Below are positions 5,893 through 23,018 of a stretch of 24,998 nt of DNA, piece by piece. Each line of letters starts with the position of its first letter. Positions within the stretch are counted from its first letter, which is position 1. The stretch comes from Candidatus Poseidoniaceae archaeon (GTDB taxonomy: Archaea > Thermoplasmatota > Poseidoniia > Poseidoniales > Poseidoniaceae): assembly GCA_965662895.1 (NCBI GenBank), contig CBFIJH010000003.1:1-24998 (forward strand), read 5' to 3'. The translations under genes were made by a program, and so were the position numbers. The notes beneath the pieces are model-generated. The model was not told where the DNA came from. It worked only from the letters and a program-made list of their open reading frames with translations, and ran no database searches.

Positions 5893-5953
5893 ACCAAATC
5901 TGTTCACTGCAACTCGAACAAGGGTTTATTGTTCAAGCACTGGATTTTACGAT

Positions 5954-6190
5954 ATGAAAAACGTTGGTGGTGGCGAAAGAGCCCTTCGTGCGCTTTTCGG
6001 ATCAAGCTTCGTATTGCTTGATTTTTTTGCAACGATTCAACTCGAATTCGTTTTTCTTATTCTTGGACTATGGGGAGTCCTTACATCGGCCTTCGGTTAT
6101 TGCCCCTTCAACAGTCTTCTCGGAAGAAACACTTGCGCAATCAAGTATGAAGAGCCATCAAAGGATGACATGACGGTTGAACCGATCTAG
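5954..6190 (+). CDS. DUF2892/YgaP-family small membrane protein
   Basis: MKNVGGGERALR, two hydrophobic segments, GYCPFNSLLGRNTC signature. Confidence 0.85.
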   Translation: MKNVGGGERALRALFGSSFVLLDFFATIQLEFVFLILGLWGVLTSAFGYCPFNSLLGRNTCAIKYEEPSKDDMTVEPI

Positions 6191-6785: not shown

Positions 6786-9305
6786 ATGCCAAAAAAGACC
6801 ATCCGAAGTCGTTACCAACGACGTATCCTCGATTGGCTTCTTGATGACGGAGGAACGGTTTCTCAGGCCTCGGATGCATTAGGCATCGCAATGCCTCACG
6901 CCTCACTTGCGCTGCGTCAACTGCGGGAATCAGGCGAAGTTCAACGAGATGAATCAACATCGATACGTGGAGCTATGCATCGTTTAACGCCGGTTGGAGC
7001 AAATCATTTGTTTCAGGATATCGTTGAGCGCGTCCGCAAGTATGTCACTTCCGTACCTCGTGGAATGAATGCCGTTGTTTTGTCCAACGATCAATCAAGC
7101 ATCGTTCTCGGCATACTTTCTTTGCCTCCATCCAGACTCATTTCGTTGCCAAGAAGAACCGAATTGTTGGAACAAGAACAAGGCTCACGTTCCACTGGAA
7201 AGAGAGGGGGGCTCTGGGCGCTCCAACGCGGCTCCACCGTTCATTGGGTTTCACGCTCAACTTACGAGCCAGTCTCCGCACCTTCTCCTCCAGTCGAAGG
7301 GACATTGACGGCTTTCTCGACACAAACCGATGCCATCGGTATCCTTCGCCTTCGTCTTCTTTCCCAATCCGATACTTGGGGCGTTGCAAATGGAACCTGG
7401 ATACGCCTCGAGGAGAAGGAAGTCGAAGGACCATCGCAACTTCATGTCGGCGAACATGCCATTGGTCAAGTCGTAGGAACGCCCTTTTCAGTCCGACCAG
7501 AACATGGCTTGTACGCCCATTTACCCTCGCCCGTTGACCGTACTCTTCTTGCTTCGTCGTTGGGCAATCGAGCCCAAATTTTGACGGAGTCTGTTTCGTT
7601 TTCAAACAACCGATCCTTACCTGTTGGCGTACTTGGGCCGTGGATGAAGAAACGTCATCCTCGCCTGTCCTCAAAGAAACGAAAGAGCCGTCTCCGTTCG
7701 TTGACGCGTTGGCTTCTTTCTGGTCGAGGAAAACAACCTGTGCTCAGTGTGCGAAGGGATTTGTTGGCAGATTTTGGTGAACGCACTTGGAGAGACCAAT
7801 CAGGGGCGATTGATGTTGTTCTCTTGGATGGTATCTCGCAGCACGGCGCCATTTGCATTGTCGAATGGATGCTCGAGACAACGGACTTTGACATGGTTGT
7901 TGAATGGCCTTGGTCGGAAGTCGAGGATTCGTCATTAATGGAACGCCTCCTTTCTTCGGGTCGATGCCGGGCCCTCATTACGTCTCGTGGTGAGGCAAAG
8001 AATTTCTCAAGCAAAACCGCAACGATTTCTTCAACGGATCAACTTGCAACAGTCTCCTATCGTCTTTCTGAACAGTACGAATTTCCAGTACAATTGGACC
8101 GAATCGTGTCACGATCAGAACCGGAAGCAACACGAGACGGTTTGCCAGCAGATGCTTCAGAACTTGTCCGATGGTTTCAATCTGGTGGACTTGATGAGGG
8201 CATTTTAACAAACAAGAAATCTGAATCAAGCCAGTCTCGCCACCATATCCGGCAAGCAATGCGTTTGTTTCCTGAAGGGGATTCCGATTTTTCGAATTCA
8301 ATGGAACGAGAAGCACCACTCGCTGCTTGGATTGCCAGTCCAGAATCAGAACGCCCCACACGATGGAAACGACTGGAATCGGTTCTGCCACATGGGTGGG
8401 TGGATTTGGTCGCAGTCGAAACCTTGGATGCAGTTACGCTCGTGAAAGCAATGGCTCGAACCACGACCGAGTGGAAACAGAGAGCTGCTCGAGAAGTCAT
8501 GAATGCTTTTGATTCGAATTCATCATTGCTGGTCGACATCGTACCACTTCTTGATATCGAGGCCTACAAAACAATGGCTGCGCACGTTCTTCTTCTCTCA
8601 AACAAAAGACATCATTCGGATGTGAAATCGATTCTTCCCAAAGCTGCAACAGTTTGGCTTGATGCGCCATTTGATGAAGAACATGTCTTATCTTCGCTTT
8701 TTGGTTTGAGAAAAACGCATCAAATTGATGGAGATTTGTTGCAACGTTTCCTCAAAGGAGCAAGTGTTCATCCACGTGGCTCCTTCCTTCGGACGTGGTA
8801 CGAATTGCTTACAGTATTGGATGAGGGCGCACCTATTCCGATGGATTTCATGCGAACCTGCATCAATGTGCTACCCGAGATCTGGTGGTCAACATGGGCG
8901 CTTGACTGGCTTGATGCTCAACTCTCGACGGCAGCAGGACGAGAATGGCTTGCCCATCATCCAAAGGCTTGGCCAGCATTACTCTTCAGACCGAATGGTG
9001 AATCCCTTGGACTACCTGGCCATCCTCGTCAACATCCAGGATACACAAATCGGACAAATATGAAACTCAATTTGCTGATGGTTCCAGAAGGGTCCGGAAC
9101 TCCAGCCCTCATGGATGTCCATGATATGATTCAACGTCTGGAGCATGGTGGTCAAGTTCACCATGGCCGAACGCATCCACTCGTTGGTTGGCTAACGTGT
9201 GATGTCGAGAAGTGGCCTGATTTTTCAATGGAAGAACTTCTTGACGGGCATGATGAGATTGCTCGACTCCTTGTTGGAAAATCGATGTTGTACAGAATGC
9301 ATTGA
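6786..9305 (+). CDS. Large hypothetical protein (839 aa) with N-terminal winged HTH
   Basis: Long uninterrupted ORF. N-terminal ILDWLLDDGGTVSQASDALGIAMPHASLALRQLRESGEV...HRLTPVG resembles an ArsR/MarR-type wHTH; the rest is unrecognised. Confidence 0.8.
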   Translation: MPKKTIRSRYQRRILDWLLDDGGTVSQASDALGIAMPHASLALRQLRESGEVQRDESTSIRGAMHRLTPVGANHLFQDIVERVRKYVTSVPRGMNAVVLSNDQSSIVLGILSLPPSRLISLPRRTELLEQEQGSRSTGKRGGLWALQRGSTVHWVSRSTYEPVSAPSPPVEGTLTAFSTQTDAIGILRLRLLSQSDTWGVANGTWIRLEEKEVEGPSQLHVGEHAIGQVVGTPFSVRPEHGLYAHLPSPVDRTLLASSLGNRAQILTESVSFSNNRSLPVGVLGPWMKKRHPRLSSKKRKSRLRSLTRWLLSGRGKQPVLSVRRDLLADFGERTWRDQSGAIDVVLLDGISQHGAICIVEWMLETTDFDMVVEWPWSEVEDSSLMERLLSSGRCRALITSRGEAKNFSSKTATISSTDQLATVSYRLSEQYEFPVQLDRIVSRSEPEATRDGLPADASELVRWFQSGGLDEGILTNKKSESSQSRHHIRQAMRLFPEGDSDFSNSMEREAPLAAWIASPESERPTRWKRLESVLPHGWVDLVAVETLDAVTLVKAMARTTTEWKQRAAREVMNAFDSNSSLLVDIVPLLDIEAYKTMAAHVLLLSNKRHHSDVKSILPKAATVWLDAPFDEEHVLSSLFGLRKTHQIDGDLLQRFLKGASVHPRGSFLRTWYELLTVLDEGAPIPMDFMRTCINVLPEIWWSTWALDWLDAQLSTAAGREWLAHHPKAWPALLFRPNGESLGLPGHPRQHPGYTNRTNMKLNLLMVPEGSGTPALMDVHDMIQRLEHGGQVHHGRTHPLVGWLTCDVEKWPDFSMEELLDGHDEIARLLVGKSMLYRMH

Positions 9306-9331
9306 ACGCCGATGATTTGAAAAGGACTTTG

Positions 9332-9647
9332 TTTGAGGGTCGGGTGCCGTGCGTGCAACATCAGCCTGAGCTACTGTGAAATTGCAATGACGTCTGATAC
9401 CAACGACGCGGTCCGCTATCGAAGACTGGGGGGACCCTTCGGGGAGTGAACTCCGGTGCAAAAGCGGAAACCTGGGCTGGTCTATGGGTCCTCGATCGAC
9501 TTCGGGATGAAATCGAGACAACCAACCGGCTCTACAGTACGCCCTGATACCGAGGGTCAGGCCTTCGAGGAAACAATGAACAAGGCCGTTAGGTATCAGG
9601 GCACAGCTTTTTGCACGATTCACGCAATTCGGAGCGATGCTCTCAAA
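9332..9647 (+). ncRNA. Candidate structured non-coding RNA (~316 nt), family not recognised
   Basis: About ten mutually compatible nested helices, including terminal 9332-9340/9639-9647 and a perfect 11-bp 9541-9551/9592-9602. Two C(UUCG)G loops (9437-9442, 9500-9505). G-U pairs favour the + strand. Confidence 0.65.
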
Positions 9648-9671
9648 GGCCGCACGCTCTAGCCAACCCAT

Positions 9672-10694
9672 ATGCAAGCGGACCGTTCGTTTCGTCGATG
9701 TCTCATCGGTGGAACATTCGACCGGTTTCATTCTGGACATCAGTTGTTGATTCAAACAGCATTGCGGCAAGCCGATTTCATCGAAGTTCATGTTGTTAAT
9801 GAAGAAATGGCGCAAGCGAAAGGGAACTGGGTCCAATCCCTTGATGACCGAATGGATAACTTACTGAATTGGCTCGATGATGCGGCGCATTTGCGTTATG
9901 AAGTTCATGTTCTCAACGACCCGCATGGCCCTGCACCAACACATCGAACTGCAGACAGTATAGTTGCAACGGTTGAAACAATTCCTCGCTGTCATCAAAT
10001 CAACGAGCGTCGATATGAGAACGGACTTCCACCGCTTTCGATTCTCGAAGCACCTCACCTGAACGATGAACTTGGAGGCATTTTGTCATCGAGTCGAATC
10101 CGTCTTGGCCTTATCGATCGGGAGGGGCATCCATGGATTCCACCATCCTATGAAGGAAAGGTTCTACGCATGCCCGCAGTGCTTGATGATGAATTCAAAA
10201 CCCCGATGGGCGAATTGTTTGAAGGTCCTGAAGATGCACCAGAGGTGGCACTGTCTGCAATGTTGGAAGCGCTGCCGCACAATCACGGAACCATCGTCGC
10301 AGTCGGAGATGTTACCGTCAAAGGGCTCATGGACATGGGTGTCCTTCCAGACATTGCCTTCGTTGATGGACAAACCAAACGAGAAGCATTGGATGCAGCA
10401 TTGCTTGTTCGTGGAGATGAATATCCGCTTCGCAGAAATGTTGTCAATCCACCTGGTCAGTTAACACCTGAATTGTTGGATGTCGTTCGTTGGTCACTCG
10501 AGCAAGACGAATCTGTTCTGATCGAAGTTGATGGTGAGGAAGATCTCGCCCCAATGTTCGTTCTCGCTGCTGCACCACTTGGCACAATCATCGTGTATGG
10601 GCAACCTCGCAAGGGAGTCGTTATGCGTATCTTGGATTTGGAAGCAAAGCATCGTGCACGAAATCTCCTTGTACATTTTGAGGCAGAAGAATGA
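9672..10694 (+). CDS. coaD: Fusion of archaeal phosphopantetheine adenylyltransferase (PPAT) and DUF359 GTP-dependent dephospho-CoA kinase
   Basis: N-half: GGTFDRFHSGH (HxGH) and SSSRIR. C-half: VGDVT, DGQTKR, NPPG, VDGEEDL, YGQP typical of DUF359. Confidence 0.88.
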   Translation: MQADRSFRRCLIGGTFDRFHSGHQLLIQTALRQADFIEVHVVNEEMAQAKGNWVQSLDDRMDNLLNWLDDAAHLRYEVHVLNDPHGPAPTHRTADSIVATVETIPRCHQINERRYENGLPPLSILEAPHLNDELGGILSSSRIRLGLIDREGHPWIPPSYEGKVLRMPAVLDDEFKTPMGELFEGPEDAPEVALSAMLEALPHNHGTIVAVGDVTVKGLMDMGVLPDIAFVDGQTKREALDAALLVRGDEYPLRRNVVNPPGQLTPELLDVVRWSLEQDESVLIEVDGEEDLAPMFVLAAAPLGTIIVYGQPRKGVVMRILDLEAKHRARNLLVHFEAEE

Positions 10695-15995: not shown

Positions 15996-15996
15996 T

Positions 15997-16251
15997 TTAC
16001 TCAACATCATCAATGTGGAACGCCCACAAAGACTGCAGTTGTCCATCAATGATTTGTTTCTCAACGCATGTTACAAACGGAGATTTTCGTAACGCTCTTG
16101 ATAGGATGTGGGCTTGTACAGGGCGACCTTCTTGTTTGAGCGCTTGAATAATCGCTCGGGTTGTTTGCGGACCGTGCACTCTCAGATAACCAACGATCCA
16201 GTCTGCATGCTCACGTTGCAAGCGACGCTCTTCAGTCCATCGCTTGCGCAT
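15997..16251 (-). CDS. Small hypothetical winged-helix-like protein
   Basis: 84-aa ORF filling the gap between convergent and divergent neighbours; GPQTTRAIIQAL...ILSRALRK...LWAF helix/wing pattern. Confidence 0.65.
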   Translation of the reverse strand: MRKRWTEERRLQREHADWIVGYLRVHGPQTTRAIIQALKQEGRPVQAHILSRALRKSPFVTCVEKQIIDGQLQSLWAFHIDDVE

Positions 16252-16265
16252 GCACCACGATATCG

Positions 16266-16287
16266 AAACACCTGTTTAAACACCTGT
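16266..16287. promoter_or_regulatory. Tandem direct repeat AAACACCTGT x2 overlapping a central TTTAAA in a divergent promoter
   Basis: Exact 10-mers at 16266-16275 and 16278-16287; palindromic TGTTTAAACA at 16273-16282. Confidence 0.55.
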
Positions 16288-22399: not shown

Positions 22400-22873
22400 T
22401 CAATCCTCTTGTTTGGCTTTCCGTTTTGACAACATATTGTTGCGAATTTCTTGGGCAATAGCCCACTCTTTCTTTTCTTCATCACTGACTGGTTCGAGTT
22501 GTGGAATTGGAATCGGACGCATCATTGAATCAATGGCGACCATGAAGAAATATCCCTCGCAGATAACACGGGTTTCCCAATCGGATTTCGTCATAGCACA
22601 CGCTGTGACTTTGACGCCAGCCGTATGTGTGCTTGTGAAGACTACTCGGCCGGTGACCTCGATCAAATCACCTTGGCGAGCTGGTGCTTTGAAGGTCAAT
22701 GTGTCAATCGAAATGGTCACAAATTCCCGATGAGCAAATTTGGAGCATGCGATGCCTGCAGACTTGTCCATGACAGAGAGTAATCTTCCACCGAACAGAG
22801 TATCGTAGGAGTTTGTATCTTGTGGAAACACTTCTTCGATGAGGGTAACGGGTTCGGTTGAGAATGGTTTCAT
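22400..22873 (-). CDS. Acyl-CoA thioesterase (HotDog fold, YciA-like)
   Basis: VFPQDTNSYDTLFGGRLLSVMD, VTISID, F-x-MVAID...PIP. Confidence 0.92.
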   Translation of the reverse strand: MKPFSTEPVTLIEEVFPQDTNSYDTLFGGRLLSVMDKSAGIACSKFAHREFVTISIDTLTFKAPARQGDLIEVTGRVVFTSTHTAGVKVTACAMTKSDWETRVICEGYFFMVAIDSMMRPIPIPQLEPVSDEEKKEWAIAQEIRNNMLSKRKAKQED

Positions 22874-23018
22874 GCACGCACTATGCCTCCATCTGATATG
22901 AAGTCTTAGTGGGAAATGCAACAATTGGACGGATTTCATTGGTTTTTTGATGTACGGGAAGGACGACAAAGCGACGAGATTTTAGTACAGTGTTGATACG
23001 CAAGGGTTAGGTGACACC

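Follow-up and report, generated by a model that had tools for sequence, protein, structure and literature searches.

The window analysed here, a stretch of 24,998 nucleotides (nt) from a Candidatus Poseidoniaceae archaeon (contig CBFIJH010000003.1, positions 1 to 24,998 of the forward strand), carries at 9347..9608 on the plus strand an RNA gene of about 262 nt that is built of four tandem H/ACA-type hairpins, named units A to D, and that is recognised by its conservation, by covariation and by RNA-library contigs covering 9345-9606. The gene is real and present in one copy in nearly every genome sampled from the order Poseidoniales. We regard its product as very probably an archaeal box H/ACA guide small RNA (sRNA), with units C and D as the guides; the class is a known one and not new, and it is the layout, with four hairpins on one transcript, that is unusual. 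An initial annotation of the window had proposed a possibly undescribed large non-coding RNA of about 316 nt at 9332-9647. A real non-coding RNA without an Rfam match was indeed found there, although it belongs to a known class, and its conserved part is shorter, spanning 9347-9608.

The structure was examined in an alignment of 29 homologues from six genera (alignment A1; the family sequences in the following), extended by 20 other sequences from the order, 18 of family f3 (Thalassarchaeaceae-type) and two of family f2. RNAalifold predicted four separate hairpins without a closing helix from the 29 sequences, with compensatory changes in 23 of 43 pairs. When a hand-written four-hairpin structure of 60 pairs was laid on the same alignment, 89.5% of the cells were paired as compared to 78.9 ± 0.5% in shuffles, and changes on both sides were observed in 30 of the 60 pairs. 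Cells changed on both sides numbered 193 versus 61.7 ± 7.3 in the shuffles, and the observed covariation score was reached by none of 500 shuffles, while sliding the partner by 1-3 columns as a control left only 30-44% of the cells paired. Across the phylum, 43 sequences were 92.5% paired with both-side changes in 20 of 22 pairs, again with none of 500 shuffles as good, in an alignment that was made by fitting to the covariance model and hence leans towards that model. Conservation in marine archaea and covariation, on which the initial annotation had let its proposal depend, were therefore both found, the covariation being strong.

The same annotation had described eleven nested helices forming one multi-branched fold. 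Seven of these are local hairpin stems of the structure above, whereas the other four, the closing helix among them, are not kept. In the 29 homologues, 98% of the cells were paired in helices 9425-9431/9451-9457 and 9435-9437/9442-9444, 97% in 9491-9496/9512-9517, 94% in 9541-9551/9592-9602 and 95% in 9560-9565/9582-9587. Helices 9412-9417/9463-9468 and 9474-9481/9525-9532, belonging to the lower stems of units B and C, had column scores of 76% and 59%, respectively, because the alignment shifts between genera; yet both lower stems form in all 19 representatives folded singly, with sequences that differ between genera. No support was obtained for the closing helix 9332-9340/9639-9647 (55% paired), for 9352-9358/9611-9617 (47%), for 9391-9394/9405-9408 (65%) or for 9372-9377/9534-9539 (78%, where five of the six positions show a single pair type and the remaining one shows two). 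Thus, in place of a multi-branched fold with long-range helices, both RNAalifold and the pairing of the individual helices give four tandem hairpins. The two UUCG loops pointed out earlier are present as TTCG at 9438-9441 and 9501-9504, and the plus strand to which the RNA had been assigned agrees with the plus-strand motifs and ACA boxes, which are not outweighed by the fold of the minus strand (z = -1.80). The apical loop of unit A (9372-9377) could pair with the bases around the ACA box of unit C (9534-9539), a complementarity that is lost in genus g11 and that could be due to chance or reflect a tertiary or regulatory contact.

All four units share one plan. Two conserved single strands form an internal loop that separates the lower stem from an upper stem of 6-7 base pairs (bp), and above the latter stands a kink-turn (K-turn) or kink-loop (K-loop), where one non-standard pair is followed by a constant GA opposite a constant (A/G)TGA. 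The units lie on the plus strand and are joined by 1-6 nt. Unit D (9541..9605) has a lower stem of 11 bp (9541-9551/9592-9602) and an upper stem at 9560-9565/9582-9587, both with many compensatory changes; its loop strands are 9552-9559 (GAGGGTCA) and 9588-9591 (GTTA), and the G.A positions of its K-loop are 9567-9568 and 9578-9579. The ACA box of unit D (9603-9605) lies 15 nt from the upper stem, is found in 29 of 29 family sequences and is absent in one of the 20 others; GCT and then a run of T follow this last ACA. Unit C (9474..9536) has its lower stem at 9474-9480/9526-9532, its upper stem, 97% paired, at 9491-9496/9512-9517, loop strands at 9481-9490 (TCTATGGGTC) and 9518-9525 (ACAACCAA), a K-loop with G.A positions 9498-9499 and 9509-9510, and an ACA box (9534-9536) 16 nt from the upper stem. 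This box is likewise kept in all 29 family sequences, and two of the 20 others read GCAA and CACC in its place.

The two upstream units are less regular at their 3' ends. In unit B (9413..9470), lower stem 9413-9416/9464-9467 and upper stem 9425-9431/9451-9457 enclose loop strands 9417-9424 (TATCGAAG) and 9458-9463 (GCAAAA); the upper stem is 97.5% paired with both-side changes in four of seven pairs, G.A pairs are formed by 9433-9434 with 9448-9449, the apical element is CCC-TTCG-GGG (9435-9444), and AAA stands at 9468-9470. Unit A (9347..9411) has lower stem 9347-9354/9403-9411 with a bulged A9406, upper stem 9361-9366/9392-9397, loop strands 9355-9360 (GCAACA) and 9398-9402 (TACCA), tandem G.A pairs of 9368-9369 with 9389-9390 and an apical stem-loop at 9370-9385. 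Its lower and upper stems are 98% and 91% paired, respectively, with compensatory changes, and its loop words GCAAC and ACCA are kept order-wide. More generally, the loop cores of units A, B and D are fixed across the order, and those of unit C vary in part of f3.

The anatomy of archaeal box H/ACA RNAs, as defined in PMC7075261, PMC7991803 and PMC2377435, allows the units to be compared with known motifs. A published search descriptor specifies at least 7 bp for H1, at least 5 bp for H2 and 5-11 nt for the loop strands (PMC2377435). The upper stems of the four units have 6-7 bp, and the lower stems have 11 bp in unit D, 7 bp in unit C, 8 bp with a bulge in unit A and, in unit B, 4 bp here and 7-9 bp in family f3; the loop strands measure 4-10 nt, the shortest, on the 3' side of unit D, falling with 4 nt just below the lower limit of the descriptor. 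Tandem G.A pairs are expected 9-10 nt above the base of the upper stem (PMC7075261), and the distal G.A pair, presumably of sheared geometry, is found 9, 10, 9 and 9 nt above it in units A to D, with GA and (A/G)TGA fixed in all four units of the 29 family sequences and of nearly all of the 20 others. An ANA box directly 3' of the lower stem is present in units C and D, is replaced by AAA in unit B of this genome (ACA in g11) and is missing from unit A. The spacing rule of 15 ± 1 nt between ANA and upper stem (PMC7075261) holds for units C (16 nt) and D (15 nt) and does not hold for unit B. In RNAs of this class the mature 3' end is expected three nucleotides past the last ACA, where GCT and then the T-run stand here. 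By their predicted structure, units C and D are canonical H/ACA motifs.

Of the protein partners of such an RNA, Cbf5 (312.6 bits), Nop10 (42.5 bits) and two L7Ae-family proteins (73.2 and 43.9 bits) were detected in the same genome. In the mechanism that we propose, L7Ae would bind the K-turn or K-loop of each hairpin, and the lower stem and ACA box of units C and D would dock the Cbf5-Nop10(-Gar1) pseudouridine synthase. The internal-loop strands would pair with 23S ribosomal RNA (rRNA) on either side of an unpaired U-N, upon which this U would be converted to pseudouridine. The RNA would be transcribed from its own predicted promoter and would end three bases past the last ACA. Protein binding, pseudouridine formation, the exact RNA ends and the function of promoter and terminator are all inferred.

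Since neither 16S nor 23S rRNA was assembled in the genome of the window, rRNAs of complete relatives (G012) were used for the prediction of targets, and E. coli numbers were placed by aligning the 23S rRNA of G012 with that of E. coli. Following the canonical rule, the 5' part of the target pairs with the 3' loop strand, U-N is left free and the 3' part of the target pairs with the 5' loop strand; a guide is expected to form at least 8 bp in all and at least 3 bp per side around the unpaired U-N. For unit D, a match of 4+8 pairs with no mismatch was found at U1893 of G012, corresponding to E. coli U1915 in helix 69, with a score of 12 as compared to 8.5 for the next best site and with 8 of 1000 shuffled guides as good. 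We consider helix 69 a probable site of unit D, which would modify U1915 and possibly U1917 too. Unit C can form 6+6 pairs around U2526 of G012 (E. coli U2555, in the A loop), scoring 11.5 with a next best of 7 and 32 of 1000 shuffled guides as good; the balance tips slightly in favour of the A loop as its site, where U2555 would be modified, or U2554 if the last A-U pair is open. For unit B, 4+8 pairs around position 2467 of G012 (E. coli 2496, in the peptidyl-transferase region) gave a score of 12, with 8 for the next best site and 12 of 1000 shuffled guides as good. Position 2496 is a C in E. coli and a U here, and we see an even chance that it is the site of unit B, which would then modify this U atypically, without a proper ANA box. 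The site may correspond to Pyrococcus abyssi 2588 and to a yeast pseudouridine, a placement that was not used as evidence. In this part of the molecule, the 23S rRNA of Poseidoniales (L056, positions 2462-2470 and 2575-2600) departs from that of E. coli at several sites within 2494-2499, a stretch that is otherwise conserved, with U for C2496 among the changes, and it is strongly divergent in the stretch aligned with E. coli 2606-2620.

In both large families of the order the three 23S sites are identical, namely in 18 segments of the family and in 20 more rows (18 of f3 and two of f1), up to two of which do not reach a given site; such invariance fits the fixed loop cores of the guides. Unit A behaved differently from the other units, as allowing looser central gaps gave no target for it either, and a genome-wide pattern search yielded three matches, where about one was estimated by chance. 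With its strands in swapped order, unit A can pair with 12 neighbouring bases of the 23S rRNA, 2579-2590 of G012. This pairing is not kept, as the rRNA of f3 alters one of the paired bases with the guide unchanged and that of genus g6 alters another. Unit A is therefore an orphan, having the same shape as the others without an ANA box.

The RNA is widespread in the order. A DNA search with the gap gave a match in 179 of 201 family genomes, including all 41 of high quality, with a core of about 9345-9610 and an identity of 87-92% within the genus and 70-83% to other genera. A covariance model of units C and D found the RNA in 148 of 151 genomes of Poseidoniales, one copy each (73/74, 2/2 and 72/74 by family), and in all 22 genera sampled. 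Genera missed by the DNA search carry it according to the model (g6, 7/9 genomes; g5, 2/2; g9, 1/1; g4, 2/2), and the 18 f3 and two f2 sequences aligned each have the full set of units. In the rest of the phylum, weaker full-length matches of 22-50 bits were obtained in 21 of 126 genomes. Ten of these were inspected, and units C and D were present in all of them and unit B in some, while none had the words of unit A in place. One such relative from outside Poseidoniales (G303; locus L258, ~180-250) has the loop words and lower stem of unit B with a well-placed ACA, followed by C and D, and looks like an ancestor-like form with three motifs and without unit A. In view of this ACA, unit B seems to derive from a normal motif, the box of which was lost in Poseidoniales.

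Transcription, which the initial annotation had proposed to look for, was found as contigs of three studies over 9345-9606, although strand and ends are not shown by such contigs. Part of the stretch was present in 22 sequence runs, and contigs were aligned from four RNA-library runs of four studies. In three of the four studies the contigs cover only 9345-9606 and end at 9591-9606; the whole of one 245-nt contig falls within the RNA (9355-9599), and one run gave 28 contigs with a word depth of up to ~70,000. A single contig (run X3, depth 7407, 31 letters on its shorter side) joins 9467 to 9534 and thereby skips unit C. This junction might stem from the reverse transcriptase jumping across the base of a stable hairpin, from a strain that lacks unit C or from faulty assembly.

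The gap that holds the RNA extends from 9306 to 9671 and is flanked by open reading frames (ORFs) of 839 amino acids (aa; 6786..9305) and 340 aa (9672..10694), so that its claimed size of 366 nt agrees with the ORF coordinates. It had also been called the largest of the window, but in a crude map of ORFs of at least 90 aa it ranks second after 22467-22985 (519 nt); further gaps are 2337-2692 (356 nt), 5893-6186 (294 nt) and 15996-16285 (290 nt), and no match was found in these four other gaps with Rfam at gathering scores. The 340-aa protein carries the Pfam domains CTP_transf_like and DUF359, and the RNA lies directly upstream of its gene in most Poseidoniales, family f3 included. The 839-aa protein (6786-9305), described earlier as a winged helix-turn-helix gene, had no Pfam match at E <= 0.01, and in each of the 11 relatives for which ORFs were mapped its gene precedes the RNA and has the same orientation. 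In some Poseidoniaceae (loci L126, L128, L129, ~1050-1200, and L195-L201) only a short gap without the RNA is found upstream of the downstream gene.

A promoter-like box, CGATG-N3-TTGAAAAGG at 9310..9325 on the plus strand with a TATA-like TTTGAAAA at 9316-9323, precedes the first conserved base of the RNA by about 28 nt and is kept in all genera aligned. A second box on the same strand, GCGATG-N3-TCAAAGG at 9634..9649, lies some 28 nt upstream of the start codon (ATG, 9672) of the CTP_transf_like and DUF359 gene and is kept there in all genera aligned, even at loci without the RNA; it is part of the neighbouring gene and not of the RNA. Of the 39 RNA genes of this genome, 16, among them the present one, have a TATA-like word at -45..-20, as compared to 275 of 5000 random places. 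The strict promoter pattern was unspecific, with 71 matches mostly within genes, and only the looser TATA-like word was enriched. The promoter function that we infer for both boxes is a prediction, and the paired boxes CGATG-N3-T[TC][GC]AAAGG suggest a transcription factor B recognition element (BRE)/TATA element of Poseidoniales together with a leaderless messenger RNA. Downstream of the RNA, TTTTT at 9609..9613 on the plus strand, three bases past the last ACA, is a likely transcription stop; a T- or pyrimidine-rich tract follows the last ACA in most genera and does not do so in g3.

As to known RNAs, Rfam 15 at gathering scores gave no match in the window, and at E <= 10 on 9250-9720 only sR58 (E 3.4) and Yar_3 (E 4.6) appeared, both at chance level. 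Neither signal recognition particle (SRP) RNA nor RNase P RNA had an Rfam match in the window. Both were found by the Rfam models elsewhere in the genome, SRP RNA at C1:64215-64519 (135 bits) and RNase P RNA at C13:38817-39114 (231 bits), and the gap therefore holds neither of them, in line with the initial annotation.

Several observations weigh against the assignment as a guide RNA. None of the Rfam H/ACA families matches even at E <= 10. No ANA box follows the hairpin of unit A, the spacing of unit B is 10 nt to AAA here and 12 nt to ACA in g11, and in family f3 unit B is without any ANA. For unit A, no canonical target was present in 16S and 23S rRNA, where the best score of 6 was equalled by 871 of 1000 shuffles, nor in 36 transfer RNAs, RNase P RNA, SRP RNA, 5S rRNA and 1.5-kb rRNA flanks. 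Each of the shuffle tests of the other units is, taken alone, only modestly significant (0.8-3.2%), and the 23S sites never vary, so that they offer no co-variation of guide and target. Moreover, the loop words of unit C differ in the f3 genera g16, g19, g21, g25 and g26, so that pairs with the unchanged A loop are broken. All rRNA targets are predictions. Gar1 was not found by PF04410 in a genome that is 92% complete and with a model that missed one of four archaeal controls; its gene may have diverged or be missing from the assembly, or the particle may not need Gar1. The initial annotation had held that a folding energy no better than that of shuffled controls would speak against a functional RNA, and this is what the plus strand gave in a single-sequence fold (-121.5 kcal/mol, z = -0.16, equalled by 41 of 100 shuffles); the evidence for structure is comparative instead, not thermodynamic. 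Finally, the RNA-library contigs demonstrate presence in the libraries and do not fix ends, strand or level, the fourth run yielded one contig of 975 nt from a relative that continues into the downstream gene, and in one contig of low depth 9345 is preceded by 91 unlike bases. With regard to the missing boxes, H/ACA-like guides without ACA are functional in Sulfolobus islandicus (PMC11077068), and the ACA box was reported to be dispensable in vitro for typical guide-target pairings (PMC7075261).

Among the alternatives, those that make part or all of the RNA a chaperone deserve the most attention. The whole RNA, or its units A and B, might be a K-turn, L7Ae-binding RNA that holds, folds or helps to process nascent 23S rRNA and makes no pseudouridine. 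The processing H/ACA small nucleolar RNAs (snoRNAs) of eukaryotes are what such an RNA would resemble. Units A and B, whose loop words are fixed order-wide although no ANA is well placed behind them, would suit this role, as would the lack of a canonical target for unit A and the position of the unit B duplex, which would cover the stretch aligned with E. coli 2498-2505, beside the catalytic centre. However, units C and D conform in all structural respects to a modifying guide, down to the spacing by which a U comes to lie in the active site, the normal ACA of unit B in G303 suggests a guide that lost its box, and f3 does not preserve the one non-canonical pairing found for unit A (23S 2579-2590); we therefore find such an RNA quite improbable. 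A combined form, in which units A and B are a tethered rRNA chaperone or assembly factor and no modification guide while C and D act as the guides for helix 69 and the A loop, is unlikely as well, though somewhat less so. Unit B could then hold the peptidyl-transferase strand and unit A some other partner, and, if true, this would be an archaeal counterpart of the eukaryotic processing, non-modifying H/ACA small nucleolar ribonucleoproteins (snoRNPs).

Far less credible is one large multi-branched RNA of a new kind or, as the initial annotation had offered as an option, a cis-acting leader or riboswitch of the downstream coenzyme A synthesis gene. The lack of any Rfam match would agree with either, and the placement just upstream of the CTP_transf_like and DUF359 gene in most Poseidoniales, f3 among them, agrees with a leader, as does a single RNA-library contig, from a relative, in which the RNA is continuous with the beginning of the gene. 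Nevertheless, the long-range helices that a multi-branched fold would need are only 47-65% paired, with one nearly invariant at 78%, and RNAalifold predicts none of them. The downstream gene has a promoter-like box of its own, the RNA ends with ACA, three nucleotides and the T-run, and the contigs of three RNA studies end at 9591-9606. In addition, the genes at L126, L128 and L129, loci that are not assigned to a genus, have no RNA upstream, while genomes of g5, g6 and g9 carry it, and relatives elsewhere in the phylum have homologous hairpins. Given the separate boxes and the genes without the RNA, a cis-regulatory leader of the downstream gene is unlikely. We give next to no credence to a protein gene on the minus strand, where an ORF (9225..9836, 203 aa, TTG start) runs across the gap. 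This frame is open in the window and the core is open in 15 of 29 homologues, in varying frames, but the other 14 have stops in all six frames. Furthermore, the variable columns show no three-base period (45/87, 52/87, 56/88), the gaps are mostly of 1-2 nt, the substitutions in the helices are compensatory, and the ORF has no Pfam match and overlaps both flanking genes. The reading as a box H/ACA guide sRNA is accordingly retained.

The closest parallel to this guide RNA is sR-h45 of Haloferax volcanii, which was compared by description and not by sequence. As described in PMC7075261, sR-h45 is likewise an intergenic multi-hairpin H/ACA RNA of a euryarchaeote with few guides, with helix 69 (E. 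coli 1915/1917) as the target of its 3' stem-loop, as predicted here for unit D; for stem-loop 2 of sR-h45, U1915/U1917 of helix 69 is an experimentally shown target (PMC7075261). The other stem-loop is likewise directed to domain V near the peptidyl-transferase centre, its site being Haloferax 2605 as compared to E. coli 2555 and 2496 here. The two RNAs differ in that sR-h45 has two stem-loops with a linker of 56 bases (PMC7075261), whereas the Poseidoniales RNA has four with joints of 1-6 nt. K-turns with tandem G.A pairs occur in sR-h45 with an ANA after each stem-loop, whereas here ANA is well placed only at C and D, and the helix 69 target of sR-h45 leaves UNUN unpaired, whereas the loop of unit D can also pair with U1917.

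Pab40, Pf7, Afu4 and Pho40 likewise combine several motifs in one RNA, every motif having its K-turn or K-loop, and their 23S targets are clustered in domains IV and V (PMC2377435). These RNAs have three motifs, each followed by an ANA, as compared to four here with only the last two having a well-placed ACA, and the range given for archaea in the literature compared is one to three motifs per RNA (PMC2377435). A precedent for units A and B is provided by the H/ACA-like RNAs of Pyrobaculum and Sulfolobus islandicus, guides that work with Cbf5 without ACA (PMC11077068). These are single hairpins of Crenarchaeota that are devoid of the lower stem too, whereas in units A and B a lower stem of 4-9 bp is retained and the hairpins are joined to two canonical units that follow them.

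Among the archaea of surface seawater, the uncultured Poseidoniales (Marine Group II) rank with the most abundant. No description of an RNA-modification system of Poseidoniales was found in a limited literature search. The RNA described here is a family ready for use as a covariance model and absent from Rfam 15, and it annotates one of the larger 'empty' gaps in nearly every genome of the order. It appears to be aimed at the catalytic region of the ribosome, with three predicted modified sites in large-subunit rRNA, and it is a natural example of an RNA with four H/ACA units. Two of these, units A and B, appear to have lost the ACA box and yet remain under strong constraint, which bears on how far the ACA box is needed in vivo.

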